A stretch of 27,195 bases of DNA from Elusimicrobiota bacterium (GTDB taxonomy: Bacteria > Elusimicrobiota > Elusimicrobia > Elusimicrobiales > UBA9959). The position numbers and the translations under genes were made by a program. The notes below the pieces were generated by a model, which did not search any database, was not told the origin of the DNA, and saw only the letters and a program-made list of their open reading frames with translations. The DNA is taken from assembly GCA_036574205.1 (NCBI GenBank), contig JAINCQ010000006.1, forward strand, positions 1 to 27,195. The letters run 5' to 3'. Below, in pieces: positions 6,166 to 27,195 of the stretch; position 1 is the first letter of the stretch; every line of letters begins with the position of its first letter.

Positions 6166-6307
6166 AAACTCTCCTTAAAATCTGGACTTTTACAAATTTT
6201 ATTATACAATTTTTTAGTAATTTTTAGAAAAATTTGTAAAATATCTCCACATATTGAATTAGTAATATTTTTTTGAAAGATAGTGATTGATTTTATGCCA
6301 AATTATT

Positions 6308-6500
6308 ATCCACAGTTTAAACACGGCCGTGTAAAATTAGTGGATGTTGTTTTAAAAGCAAAATACCCTAAACTGAGCAGGGCGGTCACTCTGGTTTTGT
6401 TGTTGTTTTTTTTATTACACAGTTTTCAATAGATTTACAAACATCATTTTAGGATTTTCTGATCTTAAATCTGTCCAATATCTTTCTGAGATTTTGTGCA
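6308..6500 (+). repeat. Dispersed structured repeat, copy 2 (diverged centre)
   Basis: ATCCACAGTTTAAACACGGCCGTGTAAAATTAGTGGATG.. and TTATTACAC..TTTTCAATAGATTTACAAA..TCTGTCCAATA match copy 1; the GC-rich hairpin is degenerate. Confidence 0.9.
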
Positions 6501-9038: not shown

Positions 9039-10007
9039 ATGTGGTTAGTATTGTCATTTGTTTTAGGATTAAATCTTTTTTCTTTAACTGAGGAGTTAAC
9101 TGATTTTAATATTAATAAAAATATTTTAGAGGGATATCATCTGCCTCATCCAAATGCTGTTAGTGATAAATATAATCAGCAAAATATCGCTTTAAGAAAA
9201 ATAAAAGTAAATAAGGTACAACCTGATATGGATAATACAATAATACTTAAACTTGATAAAGGTGATATAGATTTTATGGTAAAAGACCTTAACAAAGATG
9301 GTTTTAATGCAAAAGCTTATATTGATAATCTTGGTTTTTATTTTATATCTGTAGATTTTACCGGCAAAGATATCCCTTATATTGCTGATGCTGCTGTTGG
9401 GCTTGGAAAGTATTACTATGTAAACGAAGTTCTGGTTAGCAAAAAGGTTTATGATGAAATTTTTGTATTAAAAAATAAGACAAATTTTAGCAAATCATAT
9501 GCTACCAGAATTGGAACCATAACAGGAGGGATGAACCACTCTCCAGTAGATATAACAATAAACAAGATAGCATGGACAATAAAAGGAGGAATAAATTTAA
9601 GTCCAGTAGATATAACAATAGATCATCAGAGTAAAACAATAAAAGGCGGAGTCAATCACAGCCCCGTTGATTTAAAATTTGAATGGTCAGATGAAGAAGT
9701 TATTATAGAGGGGGGAGCGAATTTGAGTCCTGTTAGATATAAAGTCAACTGGAAAAAAGGCATTTTAGAAGGATATTCTAATAATAGTCCTATAAAAGTT
9801 GAATTTGATATGAAAGAGGGCGTGGCGGGAGAAAATATTATTGAGATAAAGGGATATGCAAATTATTCTCCCGTTGAGTTAAAGTTTGATAAGATATCAG
9901 GAAAATTAACTGGCGGGATGAACTATTCTCCGGTTGATATAAAATTAGTTAATTGTGATTTATATGATTTTCTTCAATATTTTTTCCTTTTTTTAAATGT
10001 AAGGTGA
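9039..10007 (+). CDS. Secreted hypothetical protein with seven ~20-aa G[GY]xNxSP[VI] repeats
   Basis: GGAGG RBS, hydrophobic N-terminus; repeats GGMNHSPV, GGINLSPV, GGVNHSPV, GGANLSPV, GYSNNSPI, GYANYSPV, GGMNYSPV. Confidence 0.82.
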   Translation: MWLVLSFVLGLNLFSLTEELTDFNINKNILEGYHLPHPNAVSDKYNQQNIALRKIKVNKVQPDMDNTIILKLDKGDIDFMVKDLNKDGFNAKAYIDNLGFYFISVDFTGKDIPYIADAAVGLGKYYYVNEVLVSKKVYDEIFVLKNKTNFSKSYATRIGTITGGMNHSPVDITINKIAWTIKGGINLSPVDITIDHQSKTIKGGVNHSPVDLKFEWSDEEVIIEGGANLSPVRYKVNWKKGILEGYSNNSPIKVEFDMKEGVAGENIIEIKGYANYSPVELKFDKISGKLTGGMNYSPVDIKLVNCDLYDFLQYFFLFLNVR

Positions 10008-10174
10008 TTTATTACAATTAAAAACAATAGATAAAACCTGATTTCCAGTAAAACAAGAAATCTTAGAAATTAAATATTCAGAGTAGGGGGGAATTTATAT
10101 TATCATTTAATCCATATATTCAATTTAATAATTATGTATTATGCAAAAAATGCATTCTTCTACAATTTAGGTTA

Positions 10175-10320
10175 TGCAAAATATCAGAAACATATTAGAG
10201 AGATTTTTAAGGCCATTAAACCGTAGAATAATATTTGTAAAATATTTGTAAATCTATTGAAATGTGTAATAAAAAACAGATATATCTCCAATAGTGGACT
10301 GACCGGGGCGGCCAGTCCAG
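10175..10320 (-). repeat. Dispersed structured repeat, copy 3 (inverted, lacks first hairpins)
   Basis: The reverse complement matches copy 1 from the GC hairpin to TTTTGCA; contains a short tandem duplication of AATATTTGTAA. Confidence 0.9.
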
Positions 10321-10332
10321 TGCTCGCTTCCG

Positions 10333-10637
10333 GGACTGTAAAACCGTCCCTTCCCCCTTATATCTCCTCACCCTAACCCTCTCCAAAAAAGGAGAGGGGA
10401 TGTATTAAAATGGGGGAGGGGGCAAATATAAACATATGAAAGGAATTAAGCTGTCCTGAAATCTAATATTCATGCCTTGCTGACACTTATTTTCCTCTCC
10501 ATTGATGTGAGAGGATTAAGGTAAGGGTTAAAAAATGAGAGGGGAATAAGACAGTTAAACCATCCAGAAAGGTAATATTTATCACATAAAATTTAAGTGA
10601 TAGGGCTTATGGATTAGTATTGAAAAACGCAATAAAT
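10333..10637. repeat. Cluster of BoxC/REP-like palindromic modules
   Basis: 10363-10401 TCTCCTCACCCTAACCCTCTCC-AAAAAA-GGAGAGGGGAT is the reverse complement of 25132-25170 with 1 mismatch. 10333-10360 matches positions 3-28 (rc), 10537-10578 matches 25101-25141 (rc), and 10617-10637 matches 25285-25305 (rc). Confidence 0.8.
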
Positions 10638-10678
10638 TGGTTTTTAGATAAACAATTTAAAAATCATAAAAAGTCCAA

Positions 10679-10738
10679 CCTGCCTGTGCGTGTCCGCCTG
10701 ACTGCGAGTGTCTTCGCTCAGGCAGGCACTCAGACAGG
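10679..10738. repeat. GC-rich nested imperfect palindrome (REP-like)
   Basis: Outer arms CCTGCCTGTGCGTG..CACTCAGACAGG enclose inner arms GCCTGA..GCGA..TCGC-TCAGGC, within an otherwise AT-rich spacer. Confidence 0.55.
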
Positions 10739-10762
10739 TATGTATAGATATTTTACAGGTTA

Positions 10763-10792
10763 TTGACTTTAAACTAATTTTTAGGTTATAAT
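10763..10792 (+). promoter_or_regulatory. Sigma70-type promoter for parAB
   Basis: TTGACT (10763-10768)-N18-TATAAT (10787-10792), 80 bp upstream of the parA ATG. Confidence 0.65.
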
Positions 10793-10802
10793 TTATTTAT
10801 TG

Positions 10803-10820
10803 AGTTTTCACGTGAAAACT
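10803..10820. promoter_or_regulatory. parS-like centromere site
   Basis: Perfect 18-bp palindrome AGTTTTCACGTGAAAACT; its central 12 bp equal the parS consensus core TTTCACGTGAAA; directly upstream of parA. Confidence 0.75.
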
Positions 10821-10872
10821 TTTTAAGAAAATTAATTGAGTAAAAATTTTGAGGTATTGAAAGGGAGATGTT

Positions 10873-11697
10873 ATGTGTGAGATTGTGTGTATAGCAAATC
10901 AAAAGGGTGGTGTTGGAAAGACTACCACGGCTATAAATCTTGCTGTTGCTCTTGCAAGTTTTGATTTTGAAACCCTTATTATAGATTTTGATCCGCAGGG
11001 GAATGCCACTTCAGGTCTTGGTATAGAAGTTAAATCAGGTGTTAATACAATTTATGACGCAATTTGTGAAAATGTAAGTATTGAAAAAGCTGTGGCTCAA
11101 ACTTCTATAGAATGGCTTGATATACTTCCAACTGATCATAATTTGGCCGGAGCTGAAATAGAATTGGTAAGCGAGTTTTCCAGAGAAAGTGTATTGAAAA
11201 GGACGATAGAACCTATTAAAAATATGTATAAGTTTGTAATAATAGATTGTCCGCCTTCTTTAGGTCTTCTTACTGTAAATGCTCTAAATGCGGCTGATAG
11301 CATAATAACTCCAGTCCAGTGTGAGTATTATGCAATGGAAGGGCTTACTTATTTTACCACTACTGTTGATAAAATAAAACAGGCGTTAAATCCTAATTTA
11401 AAGATAGATGGCGCTGTTGTTACGATGTTTGATTCAAGAATTAATTTGGCTAATCAGGTGCTTGAAGAGATAAGAAAATTTTATGGCGAAAAACTTTATA
11501 ATACAGTTATCCCAAGAAATATAAGATTAGCCGAAGCACCTAGTTTCGGCCAACCTATATTTATATATGATCCAAGTTCAAGAGGAGCAAAGGCATATAA
11601 AAATTTAGCTGTTGAATTTTTGTCAAGAAGGGGATTTAACCCTGATGATTATAATAAATCAGAGATATCTGTTACAGATGAAGTCATACTGGAATAA
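10873..11697 (+). CDS. parA: Chromosome partitioning ATPase ParA/Soj
   Basis: ANQKGGVGKTTT, DFDPQGNATSGLG, IDCPPSLGLLT, PVQCEYYAMEG, IPRNIRLAEAPS. Confidence 0.97.
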   Translation: MCEIVCIANQKGGVGKTTTAINLAVALASFDFETLIIDFDPQGNATSGLGIEVKSGVNTIYDAICENVSIEKAVAQTSIEWLDILPTDHNLAGAEIELVSEFSRESVLKRTIEPIKNMYKFVIIDCPPSLGLLTVNALNAADSIITPVQCEYYAMEGLTYFTTTVDKIKQALNPNLKIDGAVVTMFDSRINLANQVLEEIRKFYGEKLYNTVIPRNIRLAEAPSFGQPIFIYDPSSRGAKAYKNLAVEFLSRRGFNPDDYNKSEISVTDEVILE

Positions 11698-11711
11698 AAG
11701 AAGGAGGAAAT

Positions 11712-12563
11712 ATGTCAAAAAGAGCTTTAGGTAGAGGAATAGATGCTATAATTTCAAAGGTCAACGAAAGTTCAAGGGAAACAGAATCAGTATATAAAAT
11801 ACCTCTGGAGAATATAATTCCAAATAGATTTCAACCAAGACATAATTTTGATGAGGATAATATAAAGGAATTAGCTCAATCAATTAAAGAAAACGGTCTG
11901 GCTCAACCTATATTGGTAACAAGGATAAACGAAAATAAATATGAGATAATAGCAGGGGAGAGAAGGTATAGAGCTTGTAAGTATTTAGGTTGGAAAGAAA
12001 TAGATGCAATAGTAAAAAATGAAATAAATGACAATAAAAAACTTACAATTTCTTTAATAGAAAATATCCAGAGAGAAGATTTAAATCCAGTGGAAAAAGC
12101 GCTTGCTTACAAAAAGATGATTGAAATGGGAATGAATCAGAATCAAATAGCCAGTTATTGTGGAAAATCAAAGGCTTCTATTTCAAATACTCTTAGAATA
12201 CTGGAACTTGACGATGAAATAATAGATGCTTTGAAAAATAACATAATAACAGAGGGACATGCAAGGGCTCTTATGCAAATCCCGGATATTGAGGAAAGAA
12301 AACGTGTTTATCAAAAAATAATAGTAGAAAAATTAAGCGTTAGAGATGTAGAAAATTATTCGAAACAGTTTTATTCTAACTTAAGGCCTAAATCCCAGAA
12401 AAAAACGCATAAAACTCCACATACAATAGAAATGGAAAAATATTTTGAATCAAAGCTGGGTACAAAAGTAGAGATTAAGCAATCAAGCGAAACATCAGGA
12501 AAAATAATTATAAACTATTTTTCATTAGAGGATTTTGAAAGAATAAAAAATAAACTTTCTTAA
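11712..12563 (+). CDS. parB: ParB/Spo0J partition protein
   Basis: PNRFQPR, GLAQPILV, IAGERRYRA, ENIQREDLNPVE, helix-turn-helix region, GHARAL. Confidence 0.97.
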   Translation: MSKRALGRGIDAIISKVNESSRETESVYKIPLENIIPNRFQPRHNFDEDNIKELAQSIKENGLAQPILVTRINENKYEIIAGERRYRACKYLGWKEIDAIVKNEINDNKKLTISLIENIQREDLNPVEKALAYKKMIEMGMNQNQIASYCGKSKASISNTLRILELDDEIIDALKNNIITEGHARALMQIPDIEERKRVYQKIIVEKLSVRDVENYSKQFYSNLRPKSQKKTHKTPHTIEMEKYFESKLGTKVEIKQSSETSGKIIINYFSLEDFERIKNKLS

Positions 12564-12577
12564 ATTAAAGGAGGAAT

Positions 12578-13582
12578 ATGAATTTTATAAAAAAAATGTT
12601 ATTTTTTAATACTTTTTTTGTTTTTTTGCTGCCTTCCTTCTCGCAGGAACAGCAGAAATATTATAAATTTCCTCCGATAAAATATGTATCTTTAATAAAA
12701 GACCTTAATGATTATTATTTATATGCAAACGGAGGATTTCATGCTGATTGGTACATAGGATATAATAATGCATGGATTGTAAAACTTCCGCCAATGGATA
12801 TAAAAAATTATTCAAGGGCTTATGTTGGCGTTAAAATGGGAAGAACAAAAAATAAAACATACCCAACATCTGATGATACAGATGTTTATGAAAGTAAAAT
12901 ACTTATTTCAGTTTCTCAGTCTTCTGTATTTCCGAGTTTTTCTTATGTTATAGCCGAAAATTCAGAGATACCTTTAGAGCCGCTTGCCGGTGATAGTTTA
13001 AAAAAAGTTGATAGCGCAAAATGGTTTTGGGTTAATGTTCCTTTAAACAGATTTTCATCTGAAAAGGATAATTATATCTCTGTCTGGGCTCAGTCTCAAG
13101 ATCTTTCCGATTCTTCTAAATCCCCTATAATAGCGGCAGGGTATTTAGAAGATGGAGTTGAAAATGTCTGGGTTAATCATTCTATAAAAGGAGCTATGCC
13201 GGTTAATGATAGCGCACTTGAAATGGCTATATCAGGGCTTAAACCAGCTATTGTTGTCAAGCTTATAGCTGAAAACGATTTTAAGGTAGTTATTAAAAAC
13301 TTTTCTTACGAATTTTTGGATGACAGATACATTTATAACTGGAATGTTATTGGGACTGATGTTTATAAAAGCTGGATTGAAATTTCTTATGACAGGCTTG
13401 AATGGAAGAAATATGGAGATTATGTTTATTCTCCGCCATATTTTATCTCTTTTTCATCAGCTGATATGCCAAAAGATATTTTTTATTTGAGAGCCTGCGC
13501 TACTGATATTTATGAGAATGTTGGTTGCTCAAATCATATAAATATGAATTTGATTAAACAAGAAAAGAAAGAGGATTTATGA
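12578..13582 (+). CDS. Secreted hypothetical protein
   Basis: 334-aa ORF with AAGGAGG RBS and a signal-peptide-like N-terminus; overlaps the asd start by 4 bp. No family recognised. Confidence 0.75.
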   Translation: MNFIKKMLFFNTFFVFLLPSFSQEQQKYYKFPPIKYVSLIKDLNDYYLYANGGFHADWYIGYNNAWIVKLPPMDIKNYSRAYVGVKMGRTKNKTYPTSDDTDVYESKILISVSQSSVFPSFSYVIAENSEIPLEPLAGDSLKKVDSAKWFWVNVPLNRFSSEKDNYISVWAQSQDLSDSSKSPIIAAGYLEDGVENVWVNHSIKGAMPVNDSALEMAISGLKPAIVVKLIAENDFKVVIKNFSYEFLDDRYIYNWNVIGTDVYKSWIEISYDRLEWKKYGDYVYSPPYFISFSSADMPKDIFYLRACATDIYENVGCSNHINMNLIKQEKKEDL

Positions 13583-16141: not shown

Positions 16142-17374
16142 TTAGAAGACAATTGAAGCAAATGATACAAAACCGCCAAATGGATCGTCAGCTTGAGAAT
16201 AATCCAAGAGCTCTGGTTTTGAATTTGGATTTAATGCTTTTATCATTCTTAAAGCGGAATAGATGGCAGAAAGCCCACATATGTTTGTGGCATTTTTTTC
16301 ACTCATAACAGACATATAAAAACCATCAGGGTCAAGATTGAGTATCTTGTCTATTTTTTCTTTGTCCTTTTTCTCTATCTCTGATTTTAACTGCGGAGTT
16401 ATTTCTATCGGATCACCAAAGCGAGGACCGACATGAGAAAGATCTGCACCAGCAAGTATGAGGACCTTTTTATTTTTCGCAAGCTCTTTTATAAAATTTT
16501 CAGTTTCTTTAAATAATTTCTCAACAGTTTCTATTTTTGATGGAGGACTATCACTAGCAAATCTTTCAAAGTTTGAAGTAAGTATTGGAATCCATTTTGG
16601 AGTTTCTTCCCGCCATATATATTTTAGCCACACTGCCTGAAATTCAAGCGAATGCTCGTTTTTATGATAATATTCTTCAGCATCTGGATCATACCATAGT
16701 ATTTCTTTGAATTTATCATAAATTTCTTTATCAACCTCTATCAAACCATATGGTGTTTCATATTTTTTTGGGGTTAATATGAAAGGACTGTTTCCGCCTC
16801 TGTGAGATGTGCCAAATGCTATAATTACTTCTGGCTTTATGGAATTATTAAGCTTTGCATAGGTAGCAGCGTAAACCCTTCCTCCTCTATGAAAATCTAT
16901 ATGCGGAGATATAGCCCCTGTAACAGGTGATATTGGAGTTATTTTTTCAATTCTATAAAACTTTGACATAAAGGATGTTAACTCCAGAATTTCCTTTGGA
17001 TAAGATAAACCAGAATGTATTGGTTTGCGAACATTAGAGTTTTTAAATTCAGATATTATTTTTTCCCTAAGCTCTTTTGATCGCTCATTTTCAAGGAAGT
17101 AAGCATCATCAAGCTCTTTTACAATGTGAATTAACTCTGATTCTGGCAAAAGAGTTTTAGTCTCTTTCATAATTTCAGTTTGGATGTCTTTTATTGAAGT
17201 ATTTCCATCAAACATCCCGATTATTATCAACATTTCAAAGGGCATTATGAGACTTTTATCGGTAAGTCCTTCTTTATCTCTAATCAAAATAAAATTTGCA
17301 TCCTGTTTTTCATCTCTTGCGGGCAGAATTTCTATTTCACTTCTTAAAAGCGGTTTATAATTTGAATCTATCAT
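16142..17374 (-). CDS. amrB: AmmeMemoRadiSam system protein B (Memo1 family) with N-terminal extension
   Basis: R.P.H.G.SYP, ISPHID, GTSH, ETPYG, H..EHSLEFQ, ADLSHVG..FGD, ICGLSAI, VSFAS. Confidence 0.85.
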   Translation of the reverse strand: MIDSNYKPLLRSEIEILPARDEKQDANFILIRDKEGLTDKSLIMPFEMLIIIGMFDGNTSIKDIQTEIMKETKTLLPESELIHIVKELDDAYFLENERSKELREKIISEFKNSNVRKPIHSGLSYPKEILELTSFMSKFYRIEKITPISPVTGAISPHIDFHRGGRVYAATYAKLNNSIKPEVIIAFGTSHRGGNSPFILTPKKYETPYGLIEVDKEIYDKFKEILWYDPDAEEYYHKNEHSLEFQAVWLKYIWREETPKWIPILTSNFERFASDSPPSKIETVEKLFKETENFIKELAKNKKVLILAGADLSHVGPRFGDPIEITPQLKSEIEKKDKEKIDKILNLDPDGFYMSVMSEKNATNICGLSAIYSALRMIKALNPNSKPELLDYSQADDPFGGFVSFASIVF

Positions 17375-17387
17375 AATTATATTTTAT

Positions 17388-17908
17388 CATATTACACTTG
17401 ATGGGGATGAGATATCCCACAACAAGACGAGATGTCTAATAAATGGCGCGGGCACATTTAGTGTAATATAGAAAAATCTTGAAGATATAAAAGGGTTAAA
17501 AGAACACTATGATATGGCGATAAGAGTAAATTTCTTAAAAGGAATGGAAGTAGAAATAGAATCACCGGCAAAAAAATTTGCCGATGTATTTGGCAAAGAT
17601 GAGAGATTTAATATTTAAGTGTGATTCTTATATAGGGAATAAAGATCAGGCAGTCGGTGAATTACTAGAAAACGGTGACATAAAAAAATACATGGACACT
17701 TATAATTGGGATAAAAATATTTATGAGGAAGGTGAAACCCAAAAATGCCTTGATTGTAAATTGTTGCCTATCTGTCAGGGGGGGATGTCCTCGTATGAGA
17801 AAGGAACAAAAAAACATATGTTATTTATCTGAAGACCAGTTGAAATCTGCTTTAATTAAAACATATAGATTTAACTTAAATTTACAAGAAAATTCCAAAA
17901 TTAGATAA
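17388..17908 (+). pseudogene. Radical SAM/SPASM peptide-maturase-like pseudogene
   Basis: Frame 1: HITLDGDEISHNKTRCLINGAGTFSVI*KNLE..IRVNF..DERFNI, with TAG at 17469. Frame 2: IFKC..G...VGEL..CLDCKLLPICQGG. A G-run frameshift then gives GGCP..C. The N-terminal CxxxCxxC region is absent. Confidence 0.82.
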
Positions 17909-17923
17909 AATAAAGAAAATAAT

Positions 17924-18031
17924 ATGTTTATATGGTATCAAAGAGGAATTAGTGACTCAGAAACAGTTGAAAGTAGTCGTTTCACTGGTGCGTGTTGCTT
18001 GAGCGGCGCATGTTGCAAGGAAGAGCGTTGA
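17924..18031 (+). CDS. Putative Cys-rich RiPP precursor peptide (35 aa)
   Basis: MFIWYQRGISDSETVESSRFTGACCLSGACCKEER*, starting 15 bp after the SPASM remnant. The two GACC copies differ only at synonymous positions. RBS is weak and the start uncertain. Confidence 0.55.
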   Translation: MFIWYQRGISDSETVESSRFTGACCLSGACCKEER

Positions 18032-18131
18032 AAAAAGATATTCTGAGTAAAATAGGAGTGGTTCTTGAGGAAGATTGCATGGTTTAAAAAAGATAAAATT
18101 TGCTTAGTTTAGATAAATAATTATTTCAGGT

Positions 18132-19667
18132 ATGCCAGTAGTAAATCCTGTGGAGGAGATTATGAATAAACAACCTTTGCGTTATTGGTTTTGGTATTTA
18201 CCAACTACACTTGATACTTATAAATCAGATCGAGCCGGTGTTATGATGGTTGCCAAAAATATATATGCTCCTTTGGTTTCAACATTTCTTGATGGTAAAC
18301 CACAGGGAATGATTGCGGAAAGTTGGGAAATTGATAGCGCGGGAAAAATATGGCATTTTAAAATTAGAAAAGGTCTTAGATTTGATGATGGCACTCCCAT
18401 TACTGCAGATATTGTCCTTAAAAATTTCAGACGTATTTTATGGCTAACCCGCAAAGAGGGGTTACTTTTAAATTCATTAATGCCGGAAATATCAGAATGG
18501 GAAAAATATGATAAACCACTTAGTTGTATATATGTAGAAAACGACATAATTGTTTTTAAGTTTAGTAAAAGACCTGTAAACCTATTTGAGGAAATAAGCA
18601 TGCCCATATATGGTATAGCCAATCCAAAATGTTTTGATGAAAAAGGACAGTGGAAGGATGCATTATGTATTTCATCATCTGGACAATATAAAATAAAGGA
18701 GATAACAACATCTAAGATTGTGTTGGAATCCAGACATATTTTTCCGAAAGTTCAATTTGCTCCGGATATTGTTGAAATTAGAGCCAGAACAGATAGAAAT
18801 ACGATAGAAGAGATTTTGAAAGGAAATGCTGATTTAATAATACAACCCAGTTTTGATTTGAGTGATGAGGTTTTAAATAAAGTGTGTTATTCAGAACTAC
18901 AAATAACATCGGAACCTACAGCGCGTATGCATTTCATGCAATTGAATGCATATAGGCCGCCGTTTAATAACAAAACTCTCCGCCAATCCATTCGCGATGT
19001 GTTTTTAAATCTATTGCAAAAAGACACTACATTTTTATCAGAAACAGAACTAAATCCTTCTTTTATCCCTAAAGGAGGGGTTGGATATATATCGTTTAAA
19101 ATACCCCGAAATGTAAAAATCAAAAAGGTTGCAGAAAAAGAGGTTGTGGTCTTATTGTCTCCTGTAGAAGAGTATCCGATAAATAAGGGGCAGAAAATTC
19201 AAAAAATCCTTGAACAAAAGATTCTGCAAACCTTAAAGATGCACGGATTAAAACCTAAGGTGATTAGGTGTGACGGAGGAGAATTGATAGAAAGGAGAAG
19301 ACGTGGTGATTTTGATGTCTTGTTTAGATTTTCTGGGGTATCAATTGATGATCCCTATGCTGCCCTTAGAATGATGTTTATGAGTAATATTGGAGCATGT
19401 ATCCCTGATCCATCAAATACTATATCAAGACTTATTGAACAAGCAGAATCTGTTGATGACCCTAATATACGGAAACAGATTGCTGAAAAAATAAATAAAA
19501 CTATTTATGATGAGGCAGCTATAATTACTTACACACATTCCAGTCTGGTTTACATTCATACAAATAATGTTGATTTATCCCATATTAATTTGTTTTCTGA
19601 CCCAATAGAATTTCGCGCAGTGAATTTCCCTCCAGGGGATTTTAAAAGCGGGGATAAGTTTTATTAA
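18132..19667 (+). CDS. Family-5 (OppA/DppA-like) solute-binding protein without signal peptide
   Basis: IY..LV, P.GMIAESW, W.FKIRKGLRFDDGTPITA, SGQYKI, LN..RPPFNN..LRQ, D...RK. The likely start is ATG 18162 after GGAGG. Confidence 0.85.
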   Translation: MPVVNPVEEIMNKQPLRYWFWYLPTTLDTYKSDRAGVMMVAKNIYAPLVSTFLDGKPQGMIAESWEIDSAGKIWHFKIRKGLRFDDGTPITADIVLKNFRRILWLTRKEGLLLNSLMPEISEWEKYDKPLSCIYVENDIIVFKFSKRPVNLFEEISMPIYGIANPKCFDEKGQWKDALCISSSGQYKIKEITTSKIVLESRHIFPKVQFAPDIVEIRARTDRNTIEEILKGNADLIIQPSFDLSDEVLNKVCYSELQITSEPTARMHFMQLNAYRPPFNNKTLRQSIRDVFLNLLQKDTTFLSETELNPSFIPKGGVGYISFKIPRNVKIKKVAEKEVVVLLSPVEEYPINKGQKIQKILEQKILQTLKMHGLKPKVIRCDGGELIERRRRGDFDVLFRFSGVSIDDPYAALRMMFMSNIGACIPDPSNTISRLIEQAESVDDPNIRKQIAEKINKTIYDEAAIITYTHSSLVYIHTNNVDLSHINLFSDPIEFRAVNFPPGDFKSGDKFY

Positions 19668-19683
19668 AAATGAAGTATTTGAT

Positions 19684-20439
19684 ATGAAGGAGGTAAATAG
19701 CGGGAATGTAAATTTAGTTAAGGTTGAGAAGATTGAAGTAGATATTAAAAGTTTTAACTATGGTAACAAAATAGTACTTGAGAATATCAGGACGTCTTTT
19801 ATACCCGGTAAGAAATATGGGATTGTTGGAGATTCTGGTTGTGGTAAATCTACGCTTGTTAAACTTTTTGTAAAGCTATATGAAAGCGATGGTGTAATGA
19901 TAAATGGAAAAAATATTCATCAATATTCTTTAGAGTCATTGAGAAATAAAATATTTCTTTTACCCCATCAACCACAAATTTTTCCTCTGTCTATAAAGGA
20001 GAACATTCTTATAGGGGCGAGTGAAGAAGAAAAAAGTAGATATGATGATGTTAAAAAAATGTCTTTTCTTTGAGATCTTCTTTCTAAATATGATTTTGAG
20101 AAGAGATTACTTTCAAAAGGGGTTACCTTATCCAGTGGTGAAAAGCAGGCTATAGCCTGCGCAAGGGTGTTCATAAAAAGACCTGATGTGGTTATTTTTG
20201 ATGAGGCTACATCCGCAATGGATCCAAGGTTAGAAGAAGTATTTCTTAACGAACTTGAGGAAAAACTTGGTTGTAAAGATAGAATTTTTATATTTATTTC
20301 TCATCGTCTTTCCCCAATAAAAAGATGTGATGAAATAGTTTTAATGGGTAAAAAGGCTATCCAGTTTATATATAAATCTTATGATAAAGCAGTTTTAGAT
20401 GAAAGATTTATTAAACTTTATAAATCCCAGTTGAAATAA
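19684..20439 (+). pseudogene. ABC exporter ATPase domain interrupted by an in-frame TGA
   Basis: Walker A GDSGCGKST, then TGA at 20071-20073. The same frame continues DLLSK..LSSGEKQAIACARV, FDEATSAMD, ISHRLS. No transmembrane domain is present. Confidence 0.88.
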
Positions 20440-20744
20440 TGTTAATTCAAAAAAATGATTGTTTTTAGAGATGTTTCAAGTAGGTTATATATAATTGCAT
20501 TATCCTGACAGAAAAGAAGAAAAGAAATTATAAAATGATTTTTAAGCTGAGAAGATATGAAAAAGGCAAAAATATTTATAGCGTTTGAGCGCTATAATAT
20601 TTTTATTGCCTGGTTTTATTGTAAATAATAGCCACAAAACAAATTTTCAGAAGAAAATAGGAAAGGTTGTGAAAATTAAAACCACTAAAAACCTAAAATT
20701 TATATATAATATAATGAGAATATTTTTGAAATCAGGGAGATATA

Positions 20745-21024
20745 ATGAAAAAAATAATGAGTTTTGCTGGTGTTTTTGTATTTTTTTTCAATTTAATTGC
20801 CTGGGGGGCTCAGGCAAGTTCAAATTCAATTGAGTCAAAGATAGCCATTGAAAATTCGCTTGAAAAAAAAATTATACGCAGTTCTTTCAGAGGCTCTTGG
20901 CACTGATGATTTGATAATTATGATTTCAGCTCAGCTTCAGGATGAGGAAAAGAAAATTAAAGAGGAAACAGACAATCCCATTGATGATGAACAAGATAAA
21001 ACAAGCGAAAAGGAGAAGGTATGA
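20745..21024 (+). pseudogene. Small exported protein frameshifted at an A9 run
   Basis: GGGAGA RBS and MKKIMSFAGVFVFFFNLIAWGAQA signal peptide. Removing one A from 20863-20871 gives a 92-aa ORF whose TGA overlaps the dapB ATG. Confidence 0.6.
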
Positions 21025-21704
21025 ATATAGTTTTGAACGGCGCTTGTGGGAAAATGGGCAGATCCATTATAGATTTATGTAAGCGAAAATATAAAGAAAT
21101 AAATATTTTTCCAGTAGATATCAAAAAAGATGAAAAAGTTTATTCAATAGAGGAATTAAAAACTATAAATTTTGATGGGATTATAGATTTTTCCTCGCCA
21201 GAGGGATCTTTTGAGATAATAAAATTAGCATTGGATCTTAAAAAACCAATAGTAATCGGAACTACTGGTTTTAGTGATATTCAAATTGAAAATATAAAAG
21301 AATACTCTAAGAAAATTCCAATTTTCTTATCTCCGAATATGAGTCTGGGGGTTAATATATGTTTCATTGTAGCTGATATAATATCAAAAAGTATTGATTG
21401 TGATATCCATATTAATGAGACTCATCATAAGTTTAAAAAAGACGCGCCAAGTGGCACAGCTTTACAATTTAAAAAGATAATGGAATCAAATGGAAAAAAA
21501 GTTTCTATTTCAAGCTCAAGAATAGGAGATATTACAGGCGAGCATGAAATTATTTTTGCGTTAAATGGTGAAAAAATCTTGCTCTCACATACTGCTTATA
21601 ATAGAGAAATATTTGCTGAGGGTGCTTTAACTGCTTTGAAGTGGCTTATAAATCAACAGCCGGGCTTTTATAATTTTAAAAATATTTTTGAGGTGAAGAT
21701 ATGA
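21021..21704 (+). CDS. dapB: 4-hydroxy-tetrahydrodipicolinate reductase
   Basis: GACGKMG, IDFSSP, VIGTTGF, SPNMSLGVN, ETHHKFKKDAPSGTA, R.G...GEH, FAEGA. Confidence 0.96.
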   Translation: MNIVLNGACGKMGRSIIDLCKRKYKEINIFPVDIKKDEKVYSIEELKTINFDGIIDFSSPEGSFEIIKLALDLKKPIVIGTTGFSDIQIENIKEYSKKIPIFLSPNMSLGVNICFIVADIISKSIDCDIHINETHHKFKKDAPSGTALQFKKIMESNGKKVSISSSRIGDITGEHEIIFALNGEKILLSHTAYNREIFAEGALTALKWLINQQPGFYNFKNIFEVKI

Positions 21705-25100: not shown

Positions 25101-25305
25101 ATATTACCTGCCGGGACGGTTTAACTATCATATCCCCTCTCCTTTTTTGGAGAGGATTAGGGTGAGGAGATTTAATTTTTCACCCTCATCCTTCACCTTC
25201 CCCCATCAAGGGGGAAGAGATTTTGACACTCACTTTGTTTCCTCCCATTAAAAAACAATTCATCGGTGTTTTCCCGATTCAATTATTTATGGCGTTTCTC
25301 AATAC
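25101..25305. repeat. Cluster of BoxC/REP-like modules preceding repeat copy 4
   Basis: Contains inverted matches to 10537-10578, 10363-10401 and 10617-10637, plus CTTCCCC-ATCAAG-GGGGAAG (25197-25216). Confidence 0.78.
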
Positions 25306-25378
25306 CATAACATATACATAACCAATTACAGTCGTAGAAAATTTTAAAAGATAAACAGCTAATTTTATAAAGAATTAT

Positions 25379-25577
25379 CATCCACAGTTTAAACACGATC
25401 GTGTAAAATTAGTGGATGTTTTTTTGAAAGTAAAATACCCTAGACTGACCGCCCCGGTCAGTCCGCTATTGGAGATATATCTATTTTTTATTACACACTT
25501 TTCAATAGATTTACAAATATTATTCTACGGCTCCAGCGGCCTTAAAAATCTGTCCAACATGTTTCTGATATTTTGCA
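25379..25577 (+). repeat. Dispersed structured repeat, copy 4
   Basis: Highly similar to copy 1 over its full length; inner palindrome ACACGATCGTGT. Confidence 0.93.
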
Positions 25578-25582
25578 ATTAC

Positions 25583-25701
25583 ACGAATCAAATCATCTAA
25601 AAGTAACCATGAGGCTCAATGTCAACTCATTTAGAATGTAACCGAAATTTATATAATCCCCAACTAAAGGAGTGTTGCATTATGAACTTGAGCTTTAAAA
25701 T
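25583..25701 (+). repeat. ~120-bp direct repeat, copy A (possible IS left end with truncated ORF start)
   Basis: Aligns with 27072-27195; contains GGCTCAATGTCAAC, TATAAT, AAAGGAG and ATG 25682. The ORF stops after 15 codons. Confidence 0.7.
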
Positions 25702-26517: not shown

Positions 26518-26776
26518 ATTTTTTCGCAGGCCGCCCCTCGCAAAACTGTATTGCAAATGTTTTGCTGCGGGCTTTCGAATCCCGCGAAATGCTTGACGCA
26601 TTTCTTAGTAAAGCACGGAAGGGGTGGGATTCGGTTGCAAATAAAATTCGCTCACCGCTCATTTTTTCGCAACCCGCTCCTCGGCAAACTGTAAAGCACA
26701 AGTTTGCCTGCGGACTTTCGAATCCCGCGAAATGCTTGACGCATTTCTTAGCAAAGCACGGAAGGGGTGGGATTCG
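26518..26776. repeat. tRNA-linked tandem repeat (period 143 bp) including the tRNA 3' end
   Basis: 26518-26633 aligns with 26661-26776; both end in CGGAAGGGGTGGGATTCG, the last 18 nt of the tRNA on the minus strand. Confidence 0.88.
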
Positions 26777-26846
26777 AACCCACGAGGCGGATAAACCGCC
26801 TACCGGTTTTCAAGACCGGCGCTTTCAACCGCTCAGCCACCCTTCC
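26759..26846 (-). tRNA. tRNA-Ser(UGA), 88 nt, CCA not encoded
   Basis: GGAAGGG/CCCTTCC-G acceptor stem, anticodon arm CCGGT-CTTGAAA-ACCGG, long variable arm AGGCGG-TTTAT-CCGCCT, T arm GTGGG-TTCGAAT-CCCAC. Confidence 0.97.
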
Positions 26847-27038
26847 ATTAAACTTACATTTATCCAGTTCTAATCTGTCTTCTAATAGAACTTTTGTTTT
26901 CAAAACTTTTTTGCTTCGCGGTTACACCGCGTTGGCGACTCCGCGCCAAACTCTCCCTGAGCAGAAAACCCACGTTAAGTCGAGCGCAGCCACCCTTCAA
27001 CTAATTAAATCTTTCTAAAAGACTTACACTAAAAATAA

Positions 27039-27071: not shown

Positions 27072-27195
27072 ACGAATCAAATCATGTAAAATGTAACCAT
27101 AAGGCTAAATGTCAACTCATTTAAAATGTAACTGAAATTTATATAATGTAACCCTCAATAAAGGAGGGTTGCATTATGAAGTTGAGGTTCAAAAT
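27072..27195 (+). repeat. ~120-bp direct repeat, copy B; ORF MKLRFK.. starts at 27176 and leaves the window
   Basis: Aligns with 25583-25701; three AATGTAAC motifs, AAAGGAGG RBS. Confidence 0.7.

Follow-up and report, generated by a model that had tools for sequence, protein, structure and literature searches.

A probable remnant of a RiPP unit and a binding protein–kinase signalling unit in an Elusimicrobiota genome

A locus of probable mixed ancestry

The DNA analysed here, hereafter the window, is a stretch of 27,195 nucleotides (positions 1 to 27,195, forward strand) of contig JAINCQ010000006.1 from an Elusimicrobiota bacterium (assembly GCA_036574205.1; Elusimicrobia, Elusimicrobiales, UBA9959), and the subject is a block of four units at 17385–20439 that comprises a radical S-adenosylmethionine (SAM)/SPASM gene, a short Cys-rich open reading frame (ORF), a gene for a family-5 solute-binding protein (SBP) and a gene for an ATP-binding cassette (ABC) ATPase. 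Comparison with relatives indicates that this block is probably the recently eroded remnant of two linked units, one for a ribosomally synthesized peptide with post-translational modifications (RiPP) and one for signalling, both of which are intact in other Elusimicrobiota. The four units that the first-pass annotation had reported between amrB and dapB were all found, co-oriented on the + strand, between the Memo/AmrB gene (16142–17374, minus strand) and dapB (21021–21704). The window has a G+C content of 31%, and its 23 long ORFs end in TGA (10), TAA (10) or TAG (3). Because all three codons terminate long ORFs, as in the standard code, the internal stops described below were taken as real stops and not as recoding.

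The maturase relic and the Cys-rich ORF

The first unit gave 65–76% identity to the homologues P0101–P0103 in three frames (tblastn), and its lesions were mapped against P0101, an intact Elusimicrobia homologue of 452 amino acids (aa). Residues 199–275 of P0101 align to 17385–17615, with a TAG at 17469–17471 in place of a Trp, and residues 276–354 (79 aa) are deleted, with a change of frame at 17611–17616. Residues 355–413 align to 17611–17787, a frameshift follows within a run of seven G (17778–17784), and residues 410–452 align to 17777–17905, after which the natural stop is kept (17906–17908). Residues 1–198, with the CxxxCxxC region, are gone, and P0101 itself carries the radical SAM Cys motif. 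Thus, every lesion that had been read from the letters of the window (the lost N-terminus, the TAG, an internal deletion near 17611–17619 and the G-run frameshift) could be placed on an intact protein.

The C-terminal part of the relic matched the SPASM domain TIGR04085 over 17611–17829 (33.3 bits, cut-off 27), and the SPASM motif C-x2-C-x5-C-x3-C was clean only once the G7 run was read through as one step. The two main fragments correspond to positions ~200–257 and ~341–400 of the ~440-aa SPASM maturases of Cys-rich peptides in NCBIfam. A query read through the G7 run recovered three intact homologues (451–473 aa, 74% identity), and one intact homologue is annotated as "SPASM domain-containing protein [Elusimicrobia bacterium]". 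In profile searches P0101 scored 208 bits for TIGR04463 (cut-off 525), 187 for Clo7bot, 178 for geopeptide, 166 for CefB, 151 for PapB (cut-off 340) and 108 for the sulfatase maturase family (cut-off 349). Since each named-family score falls below its cut-off, the P0101-type maturases form a separate subfamily, and the ranthipeptide-type SPASM families outscore the sulfatase maturases (208–151 versus 108 bits), with which a grouping would have spoken against a peptide-modifying role.

The nearest described enzymes are the TIGR04463 type (CrpC), the PapB type and CteB of the SCIFF system. The alignment of P0101 with their profiles runs end to end, as does that with CteB (5WGG), which is also the solved structure closest to P0101 by sequence (5WGG/5WHY). 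P0101 shares the radical SAM Cys motif and the SPASM domain with this type, and the relic in the window has a Cys-rich ORF of small size and the remains of an ABC exporter beside it. Unlike these systems, the window copy lacks the catalytic half, and no known precursor family was matched by the candidate peptide. CrpC, a member of TIGR04463, has been reported to install thioether cross-links (PMC13692751). Taken together, the sequence relationships suggest that the relic most likely comes from a peptide maturase of the thioether type that forms a subfamily by itself, the chemistry itself being presumed from these relatives.

A different candidate, AmrS, the radical SAM partner of the adjacent AmrB/Memo, was considered for the relic and rejected. 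The relic has a SPASM domain, which to our knowledge AmrS lacks; AmrS was not among the best 25 of 32 families for P0101, and it was also missing from the NCBIfam family matches of the window.

The 35-codon ORF begins 16 nt after the maturase relic and encodes four Cys, in a C-terminal GACC-LS-GACC core. Its core (17975–18022) has a G+C content of 54%, compared with 31% for the window and 18–32% for the intergenic stretches, and this excess over the background argues for a real coding history. Its size and C-terminal Cys-rich core resemble those of the paired 34- and 35-aa ORFs that precede the maturase in a relative's locus (L005, described below). No clear ribosome-binding site precedes it and it matches no Pfam or NCBIfam family. 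A word search with the 40-codon stop-to-stop stretch returned no homologue, which is a weak test given that small ORFs are poorly represented and shared 5-mers are needed. No sigma-54 promoter was found before it either, the sole GG-N-TGC match (17566) lying within the conserved maturase coding sequence with off-consensus spacing. As a candidate precursor, the role first proposed for this double-GACC peptide, the ORF is plausible but unproven on its sequence.

The binding protein and the exporter relic

The third unit is a clear member of the SBP_bac_5 family (PF00496, 100.3 bits, cut-off 32.4), with GGAGGAG 3 nt ahead of its ATG (18162). Its relatives fall into about 78 clusters at 40% identity or more, mostly from Elusimicrobia metagenome-assembled genomes (MAGs), and the next relative has 26% identity; by this clustering, the family is small, sharply bounded and lineage-restricted. 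The closest homologues (75% identity) are on short contigs. The best sequence matches in the PDB are NikA-type nickel binders and OppA-type oligopeptide binders, and these are weak (at most 52 bits). Compared with the binding proteins of family-5 importers (OppA, NikA and DppA), the protein shares the PF00496 domain and the length of about 500 aa. It differs from them in scoring below all NCBIfam cut-offs and in having no importer permease or ATPase genes nearby in any locus, neither in the window nor among 237 Pfam-scanned neighbour proteins of 21 loci.

The window copy has no signal peptide, as had been noted from the start. In 17 of the 18 loci with upstream sequence, and also in many database members, an in-frame hydrophobic signal-peptide extension precedes the conserved Met that corresponds to position 18162. 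The matching stretch of the window has TTA where the relatives start, followed by TAG (18105–18107) and TAA (18114–18116), and the upstream extension reaches a hydropathy of no more than 0.53 over its best 10 residues, whereas those 17 relatives reach at least 2.1. A cytoplasmic location for the family as a whole is ruled out by these signal peptides. The absence of the signal peptide thus stands as an observation on the window copy, whereas its reading as a design does not: by comparison with the relatives, the signal-less state is a lesion.

Two further observations concern the start of this protein. GGAG occurs 5–12 nt before the conserved internal Met in all 11 relatives that have that Met (L001–L005, L009, L010, L013, L016, L017 and L020; 30 nt before the Met inspected, corresponding to 18132–18161 in the window), in different codon phases, which suggests a second translation start that would yield a signal-less isoform. 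In addition, a low-G+C Bdellovibrionaceae locus (L012) has an SBP copy without a signal peptide (10001–11485), followed by a 128-aa SBP5 fragment (11655–12041), with ATP-grasp genes upstream and the kinase homologue upstream on the other strand.

The fourth unit has 46% identity to residues 311–571 of a 580-aa ABC protein in L005, a fused permease/ATPase. PF00005 matched both halves of an ATPase interrupted by an in-frame TGA, and the transmembrane (TM) domain that is normally N-terminal to the ATPase is missing, so that both defects attributed to this gene at first inspection are present. Against the bacteriocin, HlyB and NHLP-type exporter profiles of NCBIfam the relic matches positions ~470–708, and the positions before ~470 of 708 are unmatched. 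The gene is accordingly the ATPase half of a fused exporter of the peptide-exporter type, as the exporter assignment had it. With a maturase relic of the ranthipeptide type and an exporter-type ABC relic, the proposal of a relic system for modification and export of a Cys peptide was borne out.

The proximity of this relic to the binding protein has another origin. Homology of the SBP to 34 relatives stops at about codon 491 (~19634), its last 9–10 residues are foreign, and homology to the exporter begins at 19642 (residue 311 of the L005 protein) in another frame, ahead of the SBP stop (19665–19667). Because exporter homology begins inside the 3′ end of the SBP gene, one deletion must have fused SBP codon ~491 to ABC codon ~311, and the SBP–ABC adjacency is, by these homology breakpoints, a deletion scar. 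The features are collected in Table 1.

Table 1. Features of the eroded locus and the evidence by which each was delimited
Feature	Position	Strand	Basis or remark
Radical SAM/SPASM peptide maturase, relic	17385–17908	+	~175 of ~452 codons, in three frames; tblastn with P0101–P0103
35-codon Cys-rich ORF, core ...GACCLSGACCKEER	17924–18031	+	Candidate precursor peptide
Decayed signal-peptide stretch of the SBP	18084–18161	+	In-frame stops; extension present in relatives
Family-5 SBP, mature part intact	18162–19667	+	501 codons; PF00496
Deletion junction between the SBP 3′ end and the middle of the ABC exporter gene	~19635–19641	+	Homology breakpoints
Fused ABC exporter, relic with the nucleotide-binding domain only	19642–20439	+	Homology to the L005 exporter; in-frame TGA 20071–20073

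The binding protein in relatives

A genome scan with an alignment of 35 SBP family members gave 21 loci, whose neighbour proteins were scanned against Pfam (129 and 108, 237 in all) and which were also searched by tblastn. Directly downstream of the SBP lies a histidine kinase, detected by its HATPase_c domain in 15 of the 21 loci and in 17 by tblastn with the L005 kinase. This kinase has two TM segments flanking an outside loop of about 130 aa, and this periplasmic domain matched no Pfam family. In L010 the match to the L005 kinase comes in two pieces in different frames (11496–12317 and 12358–13419), possibly a frameshift or a sequencing error in the MAG.

Directly upstream of the SBP, 10 of the 21 loci encode a protein of about 310 aa, and several other contigs end at the SBP. 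In L003 and L009 it matched PF02624 with 34–35 bits (cut-off 25.7); its AlphaFold model (predicted local distance difference test, pLDDT, 84) had 37 PDB fold matches at E ≤ 1e-3, all 37 of them YcaO enzymes. The alignment contains a conserved S-x3-KA-x2-EA-x-ER stretch, and a profile of the protein retrieved, at E ≤ 1e-3, 738 representatives with a length of about 300 aa, 33 of them at E ≤ 1e-30. The protein is therefore a minimal YcaO. It shares the YcaO fold with the heterocyclases LynD and TruD, with McbD and with the thioamide-forming YcaO of methanogens, but it is about half the usual size, and the scanned genes included no E1-like, TfuA or dehydrogenase partner, whether fused to it or adjacent. 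One further ORF, at 39–968 of L020, was tried as a YcaO and rejected (19% identity, poor alignment).

A small ORF with a signal peptide and an ATxFD(K/R)xGV motif adjoins the YcaO gene in seven loci, with longer variants in two more. These small secreted ORFs lie in L001–L005, L009–L011 and L013 (e.g., 8748–8921 in L005 and 8777–8956 in L010); their C-terminus is often NW, they are on the minus strand in L001, L003 and L004, and L002 has two copies. Neither the small secreted peptides nor the L005 and L010 precursors matched a Pfam or NCBIfam family. The four-gene module was seen in uncultured Elusimicrobiota and Bdellovibrionota MAGs, and it appears to be undescribed; literature on radical SAM RiPPs of Elusimicrobia and on ranthipeptides with sigma-54 gave nothing relevant.

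Structure prediction bears on the relation between the SBP and the kinase. The SBP of L001 and residues 27–160 of the L001 kinase were modelled as a complex in three runs with three controls, giving ipSAE values of 0.69, 0.65 and 0.00 (median 0.65), and the best control reached 0.00. In the calibration, 116 of 157 solved complexes reached the mark, as did 2 of 215 mismatched pairs, and these counts are only a rough guide here because our own alignments were used. The pLDDT of the docking partner was at least 55, and the runs shared at least 1% of contacts. The confident contacts join SBP residues 304–311, with the invariant SFIPKGG, to kinase residues 53–59, with the invariant EGN. As the predicted contact runs through the most conserved motifs of both families, the models support docking of the SBP on the periplasmic domain of the kinase.

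LuxP–LuxQ and TorT–TorS are sensor kinases that depend on binding proteins. The relatives resemble them in encoding a secreted binding protein beside a two-TM histidine kinase, with predicted docking on the periplasmic domain. They differ in that the binding protein belongs to family 5 (peptide/nickel), that the kinase periplasmic domain has no Pfam match, and that the module also has a minimal YcaO and a small secreted peptide; the window keeps only the mature part of the SBP. On these grounds, the SBP would be the receptor of a kinase-based sensor module and not a part of RiPP biosynthesis or transport. The first-pass annotation, which had made it a component of modification and export, is not sustained here: its fixed neighbours are the minimal YcaO and the histidine kinase, no ABC permease lies beside it in the 21 loci, and the family is normally secreted and predicted to dock on the periplasmic domain of the kinase.

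Association of the module with RiPP clusters

Radical SAM/SPASM genes were found within the flanks of the SBP in four of the 21 loci (L005, L007, L008 and L010), and SBP homologues thus do co-occur with genes of this type. In L005 the four module genes (small peptide, YcaO, SBP and kinase, in that order) are followed by a divergent sigma-54 response regulator. Next come a sigma-54 promoter motif of the GG-N10-GC type (CGGCAT-N5-TTGCT, 15281), a pair of Cys-rich ORFs (34 and 35 aa), a radical SAM/SPASM maturase and the ABC exporter. The arrangement in L010 is the same: TGGCAT-N5-TTGCT (15143) is accompanied by two Cys-rich ORFs, a maturase resembling TIGR04463 and peptidases, and a sigma-54-like factor and a second regulator lie upstream. 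Each part of the window locus was found intact in Elusimicrobia relatives, in agreement with the expectation that intact versions exist there. The maturases differ between genomes, and the module accordingly appears beside interchangeable RiPP units.

L010 (5810–6859, minus strand) and L016 (4930–5952, minus strand) encode proteins of about 340–350 aa with the sigma-54 DNA-binding domain only, each next to a response regulator that depends on sigma-54, and in both cases the SBP module follows shortly downstream. These short proteins may be a dedicated sigma-54 paralogue.

Reconstruction of the decay

In the probable history of the locus, the RiPP unit would have comprised a small precursor, a radical SAM/SPASM maturase installing thioether cross-links and a fused ABC exporter. 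The signalling unit would have consisted of a secreted family-5 SBP docking on the periplasmic domain of a two-TM kinase, alongside a small secreted peptide and a minimal YcaO. Where the relatives are intact, the signal from the kinase presumably passes to the sigma-54-dependent response regulator, which would activate the sigma-54 promoter ahead of the genes for precursor and maturase. The window copy of the maturase has lost its radical SAM half and 79 internal codons by deletion, and the exporter its membrane domain; the YcaO, the kinase and any regulator have gone in the same way, and point lesions have struck the maturase, the exporter and the SBP signal peptide. No modified peptide can be produced or exported by this locus, and the mature part of the SBP is left as an orphan. 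Profile searches in six frames, over 16900–21100 and over the whole window, found no trace of the YcaO, the kinase or the small secreted peptide (best E 0.025–0.34), and the sigma-54 regulator is absent from the window.

At least three deletions would be needed: one of the maturase 5′ half, one from the maturase stop to the SBP signal region, where the YcaO would be expected, and a third spanning the expected site of the kinase, between the end of the SBP and codon ~311 of the exporter. Beyond these large deletions, the locus has five point lesions and the internal loss of 79 codons. The L005 maturase lies between the kinase and the exporter and the window relic lies upstream of the SBP, and because these positions differ the ancestral order cannot be fixed. 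The decay looks recent, as the maturase relic still keeps 105 of the 116 columns (90.5%) that are identical in three intact relatives; for the SBP the corresponding count is 263 of 277 (94–95%). A difference in constraint between the two genes was considered and dropped, the gap between 90.5% and 94–95% being too small.

Several observations weigh against this history. The maturases of L005 and L010 are just 23% identical to P0101, and a P0101-type maturase was not seen beside the SBP module in the 21 loci, a set that does not include the neighbourhoods of P0101–P0103. Radical SAM/SPASM genes were within the flanks in no more than the four loci named above and the sigma-54 regulator in only three of 21, and none of the 21 has the gene order of the window (maturase, small ORF, SBP, exporter). 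Furthermore, the 35-aa ORF has neither a homologue nor a family, one of the three docking runs gave an ipSAE of 0.00, and the mature part of the SBP is free of lesions over 1.5 kb and may still be in use.

Alternative explanations

The last of these points leads to the alternative that survives best, although we hold it to be unlikely: the SBP would still be functional, a cytoplasmic product of translation starting at the internal ATG (18162) whose role does not depend on the lost kinase, and the RiPP genes alone would be dead. The SBP ORF has no stop or frameshift in 1,503 bp, whereas five point lesions fall in the ~1.39 kb around it, made up of the two relics (maturase and exporter) and the signal stretch; about five would be expected in the SBP itself, an expectation that rests on an assumed uniform rate. 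Every one of the 83 columns with a conservation of at least 90% across 34 relatives is kept by the protein, as is the predicted kinase-docking motif. The GGAG shared by the 11 relatives, present in the window as GGAGGAG, could mark a family-wide second start, and the SBP of the Bdellovibrionaceae locus likewise lacks a signal peptide. On the other side, the maturase relic is nearly as conserved as the SBP, and such conservation may just mean that the decay is recent. Moreover, the signal peptide, the kinase partner and the YcaO are all missing in the window, and the C-terminus of the SBP has been replaced by junction sequence.

The view from which the analysis started, in which the SBP is integral to an unusual RiPP system (for uptake, immunity or export) together with the ABC ATPase, now seems improbable. 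It draws on the location of the SBP ORF, with the small Cys ORF immediately before it and the ABC ATPase immediately after, on the binding of peptides by SBP5 proteins and on the NikA-type and OppA-type proteins as closest solved relatives by sequence. But the adjacency on which it relies is the deletion junction, the ABC relic belongs to an exporter type whose intact relative has a fused permease, and exporters are not known to use binding proteins. In addition, the constant neighbour of the SBP in the 21 loci is a histidine kinase and not a permease gene.

It is scarcely credible that errors of sequencing or assembly explain the lesions and that the living organism has an undamaged cluster. 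The frameshift does sit in a G7 homopolymer, a classic error site, and single-base stops could be errors. However, four large losses (maturase residues 1–198, maturase residues 276–354, the first ~310 exporter codons, and the YcaO and kinase genes) cannot stem from miscalled bases or homopolymers and have clean junctions inside otherwise colinear homology.

Other features of the window

Directly before dapB lie two overlapping short ORFs (20745–20906 and 20848–21024), the first with a signal-peptide-like start and neither with a family match; together they may be a frameshifted small gene. Around the locus, no promoter, terminator or repeat stood above chance except a hairpin at 20576–20597.

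Elsewhere in the window, self-comparison by blastn revealed an intergenic repeat of about 200 nt in four copies with 77–92% identity (67–266, 6271–6496, 10175–10320 in reverse, and 25342–25577). It matched no Rfam family at the gathering threshold and may represent either a small mobile element or an RNA of an unknown kind. Shorter repeats with 86–95% identity pair 26518–26633 with 26661–26776, 25583–25701 with 27072–27195, and 10358–10401 with 25132–25175 (reverse); such repeats lie near a tRNA-Ser gene (26758–26847) and the window end.

Implications

The locus in the window is itself probably dead DNA, the product of ordinary recent gene loss in an Elusimicrobia-like genome of 31% G+C, and it illustrates that adjacency in a decaying genome can arise by deletion and mislead functional inference. 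What makes it useful is that it points to a module conserved among uncultured relatives. Tentatively, the four genes of that module (small secreted peptide, minimal YcaO, secreted SBP5 and two-TM kinase) may form an undescribed peptide-pheromone circuit, in which the YcaO would modify the peptide ahead of its export, the SBP would capture it outside the cell and dock on the kinase, and the sigma-54 regulator would activate the neighbouring, interchangeable RiPP clusters. The low-G+C lineage of the window would then carry a natural "knock-out" of the circuit, the mature part of the receptor possibly being kept through the conserved internal start. If a peptide-sensing circuit of this kind does control RiPP production, it would reveal a new type of receptor, a family-5 binding protein paired with a kinase, and a new role of a YcaO enzyme in signalling.

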